Made by a program: the position numbers and the translations under genes. DNA of 64,000 bases, taken from contig JAYODI010000012.1 in the NCBI GenBank assembly GCA_038279365.1, forward strand, positions 24,189 to 88,188, read 5' to 3'. Of this stretch, positions 28,579-35,582 are shown piece after piece. The notes beneath the pieces are model-generated. The model had not been told where the DNA came from, did not search any database, and saw only the letters and a program-made list of their open reading frames with translations. This stretch comes from Candidatus Latescibacterota bacterium. Lineage in GTDB: Bacteria; Latescibacterota; UBA2968. Numbering within the stretch: the first letter of the stretch is position 1; each line of letters opens with the position of its first letter.

Positions 28579-28647
28579 GTAAACACATCAAAATTCTATT
28601 TTACCCACGGGTAGAATAGAATGATTCAATCAAACCAAAGGAAAAAA

Positions 28648-30651
28648 ATGGCAACCGAACCTCTCAACCTCCCCGACAATTTCAATCCCAAAACCAACCT
28701 GCTCTCCAAAACCACCGAAAACGGTACCTTTCACGAATCTCGCGCAGGCGCAAGCCTGGCCGAACGTCTCCTCAAAAACGGCCACCCCAACGACATCACC
28801 CAAGCCATCAAAACCCTTGAAGCCACGTTGGCCTGCCAAGAAACCCACCCCAATGACCCCCATTATGGCAACTTCTTTTGGATGGCCGAAGACGATGTGG
28901 TCGGCGACCTCAACGCCGTCGAATTTTGCCTCGAAAGCCTCATCCCCATGATGATTGGTCAGGGCAATCTTTTACCTCAAGACATGCAAAAACGCGTTCT
29001 CAACGCCATCCGTTTAGGTCTCGACGAAATACGACGCATCAATGTACGCGTCACCTACTCCAATATCACCGCCCTCGACATTCTCAACTCTTGCTTGGGT
29101 GGCGAACTTCTCAACGACGCAGCCATCTCTCAAAGAGGTTATGACAAACTCGAAGAATGGATGGCCTACACCGACCTTAATGGCACCCCCCGGGAATTCA
29201 ACAGTCCCACCTACATCGGCGTCTTTATCAACGCTTTTAAACGTCTCTCCGATCATGTACAACACAAACCCACCCAAGTGCGTGCCCGAACCATGGCGGC
29301 ACGCCTCGCCTTTAGCGTGGGCCTCCACATTCACAAATCAACCGGTCGCTGGTCTGGCCCGCACAGCCGTGCCTATCACCCATCTGTCGTTTGTGAAGCC
29401 CCTGCCGAAATCAACCGTGTCAACCAATGGTTCGAATCGGGTGCCCTTCCCAAATGGGCCAATGACGTCCTCAACTACCCCACCCCCATCGACGTTATCG
29501 AAACCGCCGACCTCGAACTCAAAAGCTGTCTCACCACCCACCAAAGCAATTCATTTTGTTTGGGCACAGCCACACGCCAATATGGCGGTCAATCCGATGT
29601 TCTTATGGCCCATTACACCCGCGAAGGCACAGACCGCCCCGGCGTGCTCTACACCCGCTACCTCCTCAACGACAAATGGTTGGGCGATTTCTACCATGCC
29701 ACCGACCGCACCAAGTCGCGCAACCTCGTAGACGAAGGTCAATTTAGAGGCGTACAACACGGCTCTCGTGCCATTGGCCTTTACACCCCCCAAAGTGTGG
29801 GCAACATCACCAGTGCCAAAGCGTGCTTCATCTTCACCCAACGCGAACACATTGACGAAATTTGGGTCGGCAATCAACAAATCACAGCCCTACCCGCCGA
29901 CGTGCCCGAAAACCAAACCATCACCATCGCTTCAGGCACCACGCTCTTTGCCATTTGCCCTCTTTCACGCACAGATATTGGGCGCAATGCCCCCATTCGT
30001 CTTGTAGACAAACAAGGCGACCTCGTGCTTGAAACCTATAACTACCTCGGTTCAGAAAAATCCTTTTGGGAAATGCGCCCAGATGGCCCATTCTTTCAAG
30101 GCCACCCCAAAAACGGCATCTACATCGAAATGGCCGAACGCTCTGCTTATCCAAACGCGCAAACCTTTGGGCAAACAGTTTCCTCTGGTTCCCTAAGTGA
30201 AGAAACCGATGCACCCACGGTTTACGATGGCAAAACCCCACGCAACTGGCGCGTAGAATACGAACGTGACAACCAAAAAATTGGCATCGAAATAGACCTG
30301 ATGCAATGGGATCTGAAACGCCGTTGGACGCATGAGGGCGATCTCGACTTTCCCATGCTCACAGCACCCATTGTTCATCAATCACGCAGTGGAAAAATAG
30401 AAATTGACCATGCATCACTTACATTTGGCAATGGCGCAGGGTGGCTTTACAAAAGCCCAAATCAAGACCTATGCATTGCAGGGTATCACGGCCCCAACCC
30501 AGGGCCTATGACACTTACCCTACCCAATGGCCAAGTCGCAATCGAATCCCTCACATGTGGCACCATCATTTGGCAAAATGGCAAAGTAACCATTGATGCA
30601 CTCAATCTAAAAAACGCGCCTCAAGTAACAGGTGGCCAACTCATTTCTTAA
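28648..30651 (+). CDS. uncharacterised protein, heparinase/lyase-like architecture (tentative)
   Basis: Helical N-terminal half (DLNAVEF, YSNI, REFNSPTY, WSGPHSRAY) and beta-rich C-terminal half. Confidence 0.75.
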   Translation: MATEPLNLPDNFNPKTNLLSKTTENGTFHESRAGASLAERLLKNGHPNDITQAIKTLEATLACQETHPNDPHYGNFFWMAEDDVVGDLNAVEFCLESLIPMMIGQGNLLPQDMQKRVLNAIRLGLDEIRRINVRVTYSNITALDILNSCLGGELLNDAAISQRGYDKLEEWMAYTDLNGTPREFNSPTYIGVFINAFKRLSDHVQHKPTQVRARTMAARLAFSVGLHIHKSTGRWSGPHSRAYHPSVVCEAPAEINRVNQWFESGALPKWANDVLNYPTPIDVIETADLELKSCLTTHQSNSFCLGTATRQYGGQSDVLMAHYTREGTDRPGVLYTRYLLNDKWLGDFYHATDRTKSRNLVDEGQFRGVQHGSRAIGLYTPQSVGNITSAKACFIFTQREHIDEIWVGNQQITALPADVPENQTITIASGTTLFAICPLSRTDIGRNAPIRLVDKQGDLVLETYNYLGSEKSFWEMRPDGPFFQGHPKNGIYIEMAERSAYPNAQTFGQTVSSGSLSEETDAPTVYDGKTPRNWRVEYERDNQKIGIEIDLMQWDLKRRWTHEGDLDFPMLTAPIVHQSRSGKIEIDHASLTFGNGAGWLYKSPNQDLCIAGYHGPNPGPMTLTLPNGQVAIESLTCGTIIWQNGKVTIDALNLKNAPQVTGGQLIS

Positions 30652-32982: not shown

Positions 32983-34950
32983 TCACACCATCCCAAAAGA
33001 AATCTCCAAATCCCATACATCCACACGATTTAACCGCACAGAAATCATCTCACCAGGTGTCACATCCTTGTTCACTCGCACGTCGGTTTGCCAAGCAAAA
33101 TCCACCACTTCCACTTTACAATTGTGTGACCACACATCCAAAACCAAAGCATCAAATGTTTGGCCGCGTAGAGCCATCAAATATTGACACAGCCAATAAC
33201 GCTCCCGCAAACGCTCCAAACGCCCAATTGTACGCACCCGATCGGCATTGCCTTCACTCAAAGTATTAAGCATTTCTTCGTTATACGGCGCACCCTGACC
33301 AGACAAAAACCCAGACAACTGACGTTGGGTAACCAAGTCTAAATATCGGCGCAAAGGAGAGGTGACCTGACAATAGGGCGTCACACCCAATCCTCCGTGG
33401 GTGCCAGGCGTCAAAGAAGTCGTTGCAGGGCGCATTTGTTTCAACACACGATACCGATGCAAACGTTCATTTTCCGTGGGTTCCATCTCAGAAATGTCAG
33501 GTGCTTGTTGCACCCGATAAAAAACGGGGATCTCCTTTTCTGCACACAAGCGCCCCACCTCGGTATTGGTAAACACCATCAACTCGCTCACCAACAAATC
33601 GGCTCGCGAATGACGAGTTTGCACCGACACCGAAATGTCACCACCGTCCAATATTTCAACCCGACGATTGAGATTGGCCACCGACAAAGCCCCCGCATCA
33701 ATGCGATTCATTAACAATTGCTCACCCACTTGAAACAACGCATTGAGCATTGGGTATCGAGGATGTGTTGACTCATCTAAAATTGCATCTACTGCATCAT
33801 AACTCAACTTTTCACGACATCGAATCACAGCACGCAAAAACTTTGTATCTCCCAACAATCCATCGCGTCCTACATTGCAAAGCATACTAATCACCAACCG
33901 ATCTTTCCCGGGTTGCAAACTGCCCATGCCTTCTGATAATTGCGCAGGCAACATCGCTATTTTTTGATCGGGAAAATACAAACTTGCAGCCCGTTGAGCT
34001 GCATCCACATCCATAGCCGAATCCATCGGGATCAAAGCAGACACATCGGTGATATGTACCCCAATTTGATATGTGCCATCCTCAAAAAATTGTACCGATA
34101 CGGCATCATCCATATCTTTGGTAGATGCATCATCAATGGTTACCGCATCCACGTGGCGCAAATCTTCTCGTGAAGAATCGGATAACAACGCGGCAAAGTC
34201 AATTGTGTCAACCGCATCAAGTGCCGCTTGCGAACATGGTACTTCAATGGCCTCGCGAATCAAGTCGAGAAACACATGTTTGTGCCACACACCTTGGGCA
34301 ACCAATCGCTCAAATGCCCGCTTTGGTGGAACAACCTCCCCAACCATCCGTTCTAACCAACGCATCTCACTGCTGTGTTCACCATTAACAACCACATCTT
34401 GAACACGACGTAGCCAATCTTCCTCTGGATCTCCTACCCCATTAACAAACCAATCAACAAACTTAAGCCGTTCCTCTTCACGCGCCTCCTCCTTAACCGC
34501 ATGGGCCTCACGCAACAAAATCGTTTCGGTATCCAAAGCACGAAAATGAACCCCATCGGCTTCAAAATAATCACCGCGCTCCAATGCCATCACAAAGGAT
34601 GCCAATTGATTTGTATCCACATCATTGCCAAAATACAATTCGGCCAATTCTTCAAAAGCCCAAACACCGTCTTCTTCATTCACCAGCGTCCACAACTCCT
34701 GAAGGTGTACGTTTTGGCTTAATTGTTCTAGATCTTCTTGCCATTTCATCGCATCATTTTTATTCTCTGCCATTTGCCCAGTAAGCAACAACACATTCTC
34801 CAACGGAACATTGACCGACTCCTTAGGCGACACGGCAATACGCACCTTTGCACGCGCCGCCTGCAGGCAAACCCCAGTCATTAACCGATTGCGATAGCGA
34901 AACAAAACAATCTCATTTTCGCGGGGTAATCGATCCAAAAAACACCTCAT
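32983..34950 (-). CDS. RNB-domain 3'-5' exoribonuclease (RNase II/R family)
   Basis: TIDDASTKDMDDAVS, VHITDV, LVSELM, YRVQ and HGGLG..YCQVTSPLRRYLDL. Exact start uncertain. Confidence 0.93.
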   Translation of the reverse strand: MRCFLDRLPRENEIVLFRYRNRLMTGVCLQAARAKVRIAVSPKESVNVPLENVLLLTGQMAENKNDAMKWQEDLEQLSQNVHLQELWTLVNEEDGVWAFEELAELYFGNDVDTNQLASFVMALERGDYFEADGVHFRALDTETILLREAHAVKEEAREEERLKFVDWFVNGVGDPEEDWLRRVQDVVVNGEHSSEMRWLERMVGEVVPPKRAFERLVAQGVWHKHVFLDLIREAIEVPCSQAALDAVDTIDFAALLSDSSREDLRHVDAVTIDDASTKDMDDAVSVQFFEDGTYQIGVHITDVSALIPMDSAMDVDAAQRAASLYFPDQKIAMLPAQLSEGMGSLQPGKDRLVISMLCNVGRDGLLGDTKFLRAVIRCREKLSYDAVDAILDESTHPRYPMLNALFQVGEQLLMNRIDAGALSVANLNRRVEILDGGDISVSVQTRHSRADLLVSELMVFTNTEVGRLCAEKEIPVFYRVQQAPDISEMEPTENERLHRYRVLKQMRPATTSLTPGTHGGLGVTPYCQVTSPLRRYLDLVTQRQLSGFLSGQGAPYNEEMLNTLSEGNADRVRTIGRLERLRERYWLCQYLMALRGQTFDALVLDVWSHNCKVEVVDFAWQTDVRVNKDVTPGEMISVRLNRVDVWDLEISFGMV

Positions 34951-34988
34951 AAAAAATAAAGGGCAGGCGGGAGAAGAGCCCGCCTGCC
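34951..34988 (-). terminator. intrinsic terminator after the peroxiredoxin gene
   Basis: Perfect stem GGCAGGCGGG/CCCGCCTGCC followed by CTTTATTTTTT. Confidence 0.8.
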
Positions 34989-35013
34989 AGACAACCATCA
35001 TAAAATTATAAGT

Positions 35014-35457
35014 CTATATGGTAGGCAACAACGTTTCAGGGTGCTCCCGAGCAACCACTTCGGCATGCACTTGTAACACCTTGCCATCGGGTCCAATAAC
35101 ATAAGAAATCCGTTTGGCAGCACCATCTTCGGCCGTTGCACAAGCACCATAGGCCAAACAAATTTCACGTTTGGTATCGCACAAAAGTGGATACGTAAAA
35201 CCCTGCTCTGTTGCAAACTTGGCATTGGCATCCACACCATCTGTGCTCACACCCAAAATTTGTACATTTTTAGCATTGTATTCTTGGATTCGCGCCTGGA
35301 ATCCTAAACCTTCAGCCGTTCAACCACCGGTACTGGCGCGTGGATAAAACCACATCACCACTGTTTTGCCCTGATAATCGCTAAGCGCAACTTCTTTTCC
35401 CGTGTGATCCAAAACGGAAAAACCAGGGGCAATATCACCAACCTTCAACATAGGCAT
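35014..35457 (-). CDS. bcp: BCP/PrxQ peroxiredoxin with in-frame TGA (probable selenocysteine at codon 46)
   Basis: RBS GGAGG, ATG 35457: MPMLKVGDIAPGFSVLDHTGKEVALSDYQGKTVVMWFYPRASTGG-TGA(35322-35320)-TAEGLGFQARIQEYNAKNVQILGVSTD..., continuing in frame into the ORF-track fragment 35014-35256. Confidence 0.88.
35286..35304 (-). other. candidate bacterial SECIS hairpin
   Basis: GGATTC-CAGGCGC-GAATCC stem-loop starting 15 nt 3' of the TGA, with a G-containing loop. Confidence 0.55.
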
Positions 35458-35582
35458 AAGTGCCTCCTCTATGGGATGTTTCATCAACCAAACGAACGGG
35501 CATAATATAGGCTCAGAAAGCCAACAATGCCAGCATAATTACAACAGGATCATCGGATGTGTTTACAACTCATACCAAGCTA

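Follow-up and report, generated by a model that had tools for sequence, protein, structure and literature searches.

A predicted selenocysteine peroxiredoxin of the BCP/PrxQ type without the usual resolving cysteine in a Candidatus Latescibacterota bacterium

Main finding

The TGA at codon 46 of a peroxiredoxin gene in the window (the whole stretch of DNA that was analyzed, 64,000 nucleotides from a Candidatus Latescibacterota bacterium) occupies the catalytic position of a BCP/PrxQ-type protein and, judged from sequence comparison, very likely encodes selenocysteine (Sec). The Sec46 enzyme, which has no Cys at either known PrxQ resolving site, is predicted to reduce peroxides and to be re-reduced directly by thioredoxin, a reading that is given a probability of roughly 0.6.

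Gene and predicted protein

The reading frame extends from an ATG at 35457 to 35014 on the minus strand, ends with TAG, and contains one internal TGA, codon 46 (35322-35320), in the context WFYPRASTGG*TAEG (the asterisk is the TGA). Translation reproduced the single-TGA frame of the original prediction, with 147 codons, and the GGAGG described ahead of the ATG was found at 35467-35463, 5 nt upstream. The features of the gene are as follows; positions with a plus sign are counted from the TGA.

35014..35457, minus strand: BCP/PrxQ-type peroxiredoxin gene with predicted Sec at residue 46 (PF00578, 115.6 bits; fold match)
35320..35322, minus strand: TGA in frame at the peroxidatic residue (motif PxxxTxxU with P39 and T43), from alignment, conservation and independent contigs
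35305..35307, minus strand: codon 51 (Leu), the alpha2 resolving-Cys site, adjoining the stem on the outside
35286..35304, minus strand: SECIS-type hairpin, register B, stem +16..+21 with +29..+34, from conservation across relatives
35179..35181, minus strand: Cys93 (LLCD), hallmark of the subfamily in both Cys and Sec forms
35158..35160, minus strand: Cys100, in helix 98-103 of the model, invariant in its own 33-row clade
35140..35142, minus strand: Cys106 (YGAC), common yet variable
35110..35112, minus strand: Arg116, invariant active-site arginine (120/120 protein matches)
35463..35467, minus strand: ribosome-binding site GGAGG, with comparable sites at 7 related loci inspected
34962..34988, minus strand: intrinsic-terminator-like hairpin 3' of the stop, 10 pairs and a T tail (consensus match only)
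35504..35533, minus strand: weak sigma70-like promoter match, 9/12 (2 found vs 1.2 expected, not significant)

The read-through protein matched PF00578 above the cut-off in a Pfam scan (115.6 bits). The structure predicted for it, with a pLDDT of 96.7, has M. tuberculosis BcpB (5epf, TM 0.89) as its best fold match. The active-site motif PxxxTxxC/U is present as P39, T43 and U46, and the invariant distal Arg that is a feature of the peroxiredoxin superfamily is present as R116, in 120/120 protein matches. The protein is ~147-150 aa long and has no C-terminal arm, a signal peptide-like extension is absent from the 147-aa form, and the closest profiles and structures are BCP/PrxQ. The score against PRK09437 (bcp equivalog) did not reach the cut-off (101.5 vs 140 bits), and the protein is therefore placed in the wider PrxQ subfamily and no more narrowly; the cut-off of NF040737 (PrxU) was not reached either (52.3 vs 270 bits). 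Given the terminator-like hairpin, the gene is likely to be transcribed on its own. Two RNA-library contigs overlap it (35035-35482 and 35000-35379); these are not counted as evidence of expression. An RNase II/RNB-family gene lies directly 3' (window 32983-35001, minus strand), a position kept at 13 loci of the family. At 28621-30651 (plus strand) the window encodes a 676-aa protein with no Pfam match, located between hydrolase and GH31 glycosidase genes.

TGA as a selenocysteine codon

As claimed from the letters alone, the TGA sits exactly at the catalytic Cys, since it aligns with that residue in solved PrxQ proteins. The expectation that orthologues share it was borne out in 30/30 genomes of the same family and, in a survey of 168 genomes of the phylum (matches at E<=1e-28), in 50 of 52 matches, the 50 having one TGA each and the other 2 none. 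The nearest named records are Candidatus Latescibacterota bins with 86% identity. Two further samples of 400 genomes each were taken around a record with Blastocatellia in its title, where TGA is present in all 31 matches, and around a deltaproteobacterium-titled record (Myxococcota, judging by protein names), where 40 matches carry TGA and 31 carry none, each of the two counts excluding one unpublished genome.

Gene callers mishandle the gene, as had been foreseen: close relatives appear in the protein collection as C-terminal fragments (P0035, P0065, P0097), and W stands at the peroxidatic site in 9/120 protein matches (P0002, P0003, P0009, P0014, P0022, P0028, P0074, P0090, P0106), probably because these callers read TGA under a UGA=Trp code. 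Such products, together with a hairpin that is unremarkable when taken alone, would agree with a TGA that is a real stop (the gene then being a pseudogene or yielding two short products), that arose as a sequencing error, or that encodes Trp or Cys under a variant code; these explanations are very improbable even when combined. Contigs from four other studies bridge codon 46 with identical bases and without TGT, TGC or any other letter (four runs, 2 DNA and 2 RNA libraries; 4 of the 20 listed holders), which speaks against an error. A real stop is hard to reconcile with a TGA kept in relatives down to 41% protein identity and with purifying selection that acts downstream of it as well as upstream (pN/pS 0.20/0.76 and 0.17/0.78, respectively; 35 pairs). 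The genetic code is standard, with TGA terminating 382/1750 long frames of the genome, and the sole UCA-anticodon tRNA is tRNA-Sec.

Selenocysteine machinery and other candidate selenoproteins

The Sec machinery that was predicted to exist elsewhere in the genome is present on contig C34, where selA, selB, selD and tRNA-Sec all scored over their cut-offs; selD carries one TGA itself. In the phylum, selA was found in 131/168 genomes and in 48/50 genomes with the TGA gene, the two without a selA match being 91% and 80% complete. The cluster on C34 (31069-36920) has the order selA-selB-[ResA-like candidate]-selD(TGA)-tRNA-Sec, and the ResA-like candidate selenoprotein is of the WAxxUGC type (157 bits vs a cut-off of 300). 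A heuristic scan of the genome yielded 251 read-through candidates, 55 of them in a motif-like context, and of 15 of those that were scanned 12 look like further selenoproteins by sequence; the other three (C14, C26, C180) have the appearance of ordinary stops. Hairpin loops of most such candidates begin 17-24 nt after the TGA. A 436-codon read-through frame at C142 6619-7929 (GHPVGCVU), in which the TGA is followed at 18 nt by a strong hairpin, has no Pfam or NCBIfam match and is possibly an undescribed selenoprotein. A DUF5069 protein at C6 43897-44181 (YPU, hairpin with a UGGA loop) is another candidate. Further read-through candidates have the Prx/Trx fold (TxxU, UxxC), several with signal peptides, and are located at C124 14970-15575, C16 32634-33218, C134 59359-60315, C134 4729-5217, C9 8479-9510 and C49 23029-24336; others are an M20 amidohydrolase (C18 40297-41619, HGUGH), a DUF1223 protein (C128 27842-28594, GUSSC) and a DedA-rhodanese protein (C129 38804-39856, FCTU).

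SECIS-type hairpin and its two registers

The stem-loop reported 15 nt after the TGA is present as described (GGATTC at 35304-35299, loop CAGGCGC, GAATCC at 35291-35286), and an additional C+22/G+27 pair would shorten the loop to AGGC. By itself the hairpin is weak evidence, because shuffled versions of the 76-nt region that contains it fold as well as the original (z 0.47), the segment energy is -7.0 kcal/mol for +10..+45, and a 6-pair stem at the same distance occurs at 308/14399 ordinary coding positions (2.1%). It is taken as real because it is conserved across relatives and synonymous change is suppressed within it. In 44 distinct rows every position of the stem is paired (264/264 cells, 4 two-sided changes, 0/500 shuffles), and slid controls are 6-66% paired; these rows were picked for at least 5/6 pairs, a number that each of the 44 Sec forms examined in the phylum has, and one row of intermediate type was assigned to the other set. 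Across the hairpin codons pS drops to 0.135 (0.78 upstream, 0.76 downstream), and TTC, CGA/AGA and ATC are each fixed in 44/44, with a use in the genome of 14%, 19% and 27%, respectively. A second, distant clade (L082-L089, 41-49% identity), from another family of the class, has the identical register-B stem.

The bSECIS consensus, as given in the relevant passage of PMC13188914, has a stem of 4-16 bp and a loop of 3-9 nt at 16-37 nt from the UGA, with G in the first two loop positions and an MFE at or below -7.5 kcal/mol. Computed energies lie on either side of that MFE limit, at -7.0 kcal/mol for +10..+45 and -10.1 for +1..+57. The geometry of the hairpin agrees with the consensus (6-7 bp, loop 4-7 nt, 21-22 nt from the UGA); the loop G is found only with the C+22/G+27 pair (AGGC loop) and not in the 7-nt loop. 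This pair is part of the MFE fold, and G+27 is present in 19/19 rows with CAG at codon 54. An Rfam search around the gene gave nothing near the gathering score.

Most Sec forms outside the phylum have the other stem, register A (+10..+17 with +21..+28), which contains codon 51. It is 95% paired in 36 distinct rows, with 7 G-C to C-G changes; shuffles reached the observed number of paired cells in 0/500 cases, but the number of changed pairs in 411/500. Because codon 51 lies inside the register-A stem its replacements are limited (TGC in 47 and CGC, TCC, ACC or AAC in 14 of 61 rows), whereas register B leaves the codon free (20 different codons in 56 rows, 8 of which keep Cys51). On these codon counts, register B frees the replacement of codon 51 without forcing the loss of Cys51. 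A rule by which the SECIS shift causes the loss of C51 was rejected, given the 8/56 register-B rows that keep it and the 14/61 register-A rows without it.

Selenocysteine and the loss of Cys51

The original prediction had Leu at the usual resolving position (L51) and three other Cys (C93, C100, C106), and both statements are correct. The alpha2-type site, five residues after the peroxidatic residue, is L51, and the alpha3-type site, the equivalent of Xanthomonas Cys84, is A82; Cys is present at 51 in 0/44 and at 82 in 0/44 of the Sec forms of the phylum examined. The resolving Cys of PrxQ proteins is placed in alpha2 in ~60% and in alpha3 in ~6%, with about a third having none, in the section of PMC4749874 that deals with them.

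The comparison of Sec and Cys forms suggests, but does not show, that Sec permits the loss of C51. Among 157 DNA-verified rows, the Sec forms number 62 without and 56 with C51, and the Cys forms 10 without and 29 with it; since Cys forms without C51 exist (10/39), its absence does not require Sec. C51 is present in 99/107 database Cys proteins and in 1/9 W-miscalled proteins. Every run of a four-state model placed losses on the Sec background alone and gains on the Cys background alone, a fit that was significant when database proteins were included (p 1.3e-5; for equal loss, p 0.04). Restricted to DNA-verified rows, Pagel-type tests were not significant (p 0.20/0.16; second set p 0.12/0.21), and independent pairs, which have low power, gave 3.3 vs 0.1 of 8 (p 0.25) and 1.2 vs 0.2 of 3; neither test established the stronger claim that Sec is required for losing C51. 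The trees were built quickly, with poor resolution and uneven sampling, and leave out six duplicates, one fragment, three non-orthologues, the unpublished locus, three protein fragments, one duplicate protein and 54 distant metagenome rows.

The metagenome scan was able to find Cys forms only, and 9 of its 10 subfamily rows are without C51. Two of the metagenome Cys rows, L153 and L155, keep the full register-A hairpin, as reversions would, and six form a long-branch clade without the hairpin. Inside the Sec clade, the Sec form L071, with Ile51, has as its sister the Cys form L070 of the same genus, with Cys51; L070 keeps 5/6 register-B pairs and its genome has selA. A joint reading, tentative and with the odds somewhat against it, would be that C51 was lost only in Sec forms and came back once Sec had reverted to Cys, that a six-base shift of the SECIS freed codon 51, and that the result is a one-Sec enzyme served by a ferredoxin-dependent thioredoxin or having an undescribed resolving site at C100. 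If it were true, the PrxQ subfamily would be a natural experiment in selenocysteine reshaping an enzyme.

Proposed catalytic cycle and reductants

In the proposed cycle, SelB would almost certainly bind the hairpin and deliver Sec-tRNA, and the selenolate would, by the chemistry of the family, very probably attack H2O2 or ROOH to form a selenenic acid. No internal Cys would resolve it; a WCGPC thioredoxin would probably attack the selenenic acid, or alternatively a protective selenenyl-amide form, giving a transient Se-S link and then the free enzyme. Model selenenic acids are rapidly captured by thiols, as stated in a passage of PMC13427140, and the genome encodes two thioredoxins (WCGPC) over the cut-off. 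Because no canonical NADPH thioredoxin reductase was found in the genome (best TrxB match 87.5 vs 343 bits, below the cut-off), re-reduction of thioredoxin is suggested to proceed, with less assurance than the other steps, from ferredoxin via the FTR catalytic-subunit homologue (PF02943, contig C36 28322-28582). Among 31 genomes of the family, TrxB is present in 5 and the FTR homologue in 21, both are present in none, and neither in 5, which are incomplete. No reductant gene was recognized among the conserved neighbors (clusters inspected by eye, Pfam on the neighbors in the window). Counting against the thioredoxin route, the PrxQ of C. glutamicum without its resolving Cys is not reduced by thioredoxin, according to the experiments described in part of PMC5811025.

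A distal Cys, most likely C100 or else C93 or C106, might instead resolve Sec46 as a selenenyl sulfide, in-chain or cross-dimer, from a position outside the five described. With C93 present in 44/44 Sec forms of the phylum and C100 in 33/33 rows of its own clade, which lacks C51 (2/199 rows outside), a role for an internal Cys is possible, but the distribution of the three residues does not support the new resolving mechanism that had been suggested, and this route is rather unlikely. C100 is absent from 11/44 Sec forms of the phylum without C51. Xanthomonas PrxQ, in which the alpha3 Cys is the resolving residue, and Burkholderia BCP each have a Cys at the position aligned with C100; the matching Cys99 of E. 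coli BCP is presumably non-catalytic. C93 and C106 are older than the loss of C51 and are not enriched in its absence (79/85 rows without vs 134/149 with C51 for C93; 62/85 vs 92/149 for C106), so neither shows a sign of compensating for the missing residue. Three of 118 Sec rows are free of any Cys (L119, L258, L268). Two narrower proposals were rejected: C93 as a Sec-specific resolving Cys, which Cys forms and C51-bearing forms have just as often, and an obligate C93-C106 disulfide, C106 being absent from many C93 carriers.

Recycling without an internal resolving Cys could also depend on a small thiol and a glutaredoxin-like protein, as in selenium glutathione peroxidases and some 1-Cys peroxiredoxins; 1-Cys Prxs are able to use GSH/Grx (PMC5811025). 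This is the less probable of the two routes that compete with direct reduction by thioredoxin, and is considered improbable, because the genome, 98.5% complete, has no match to gshA, GCS2 or bshC and its gshB match is below the cut-off. A CPYC glutaredoxin-like gene (78.8 bits vs a cut-off of 90) would be in line with it, as would a flavoprotein on contig C193 that combines a ferredoxin-like part at its N-terminus with a YpdA/TrxB-like domain, far under all cut-offs. The flavoprotein is matched in all three genomes of the genus.

Comparison with known systems

The gene is a Sec-BCP/PrxQ, a member of an already catalogued selenoprotein family. That Sec-peroxiredoxins are known in general, as the original prediction stated, is correct: TxxU peroxiredoxins of the BCP group have been catalogued since 2005. 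The passages on the prokaryotic selenoprotein family 'Peroxiredoxin (Prx)' (PF00578/COG1225, TxxU) in PMC1088965 list 43 Sargasso Sea sequences and rank these COG1225 peroxiredoxins as the second most abundant selenoproteins there; 12 are given for genomes in the corresponding part of PMC1794560, and the family is tabulated too in PMC13188914. The present gene shares with them the PxxxTxxU motif, the Prx fold, a SECIS right after the UGA, widespread Cys homologues and frequent Sec/Cys exchange, and there is no difference at the family level. Neither the status of the resolving Cys nor the SECIS register nor Latescibacterota is taken up in the main-text passages of these three papers, and their supplements may list the subfamily. 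A literature search that covered few subscription papers returned nothing on a resolving mechanism of Sec-PrxQ, on a SECIS overlapping the resolving-Cys codon, or on selenoproteins of Latescibacterota.

PrxU of Eubacterium acidaminophilum is a Sec-peroxiredoxin shown by experiment, as cited in passages of PMC13188914 and PMC7231847; it likewise has Sec at the peroxidatic site, and differs from the 147-aa BCP-like protein, which scores 52.3 bits on the 233 positions of NF040737 (cut-off 270). The best sequence and fold matches are M. tuberculosis BcpB (5EPF), Xanthomonas PrxQ, Sulfolobus Bcp1 and Burkholderia BCP (5ENU), from which the protein differs by Sec in place of Cys, by being about five residues shorter ahead of the active-site Arg, and by the LLCD and YGAC cysteines. 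The distal active-site Arg is known, for example, as AhpE Arg116 (in the portion of PMC7231847 on that enzyme). Glutathione peroxidases, a different family, offer an analogy in that their Sec forms can manage without a resolving Cys and their Cys forms carry one (stated in a passage of PMC10298544); here 56/118 Sec rows keep it and 10/39 Cys rows are without it, so the split is not clean.

The annotation repairs a gene that is split or mistranslated by gene callers across a whole class of uncultured bacteria, and is ordinary by itself since the family was already known. What is added is modest, a comparative angle on resolving Cys and SECIS registers in an unannotated family member. Close relatives show all four combinations of Sec or Cys with and without the resolving Cys, which makes the relation between selenium and the loss of that residue testable in a 16-kDa protein, and the comparative set shows how a SECIS inside the coding region limits the residues able to replace a catalytic Cys.
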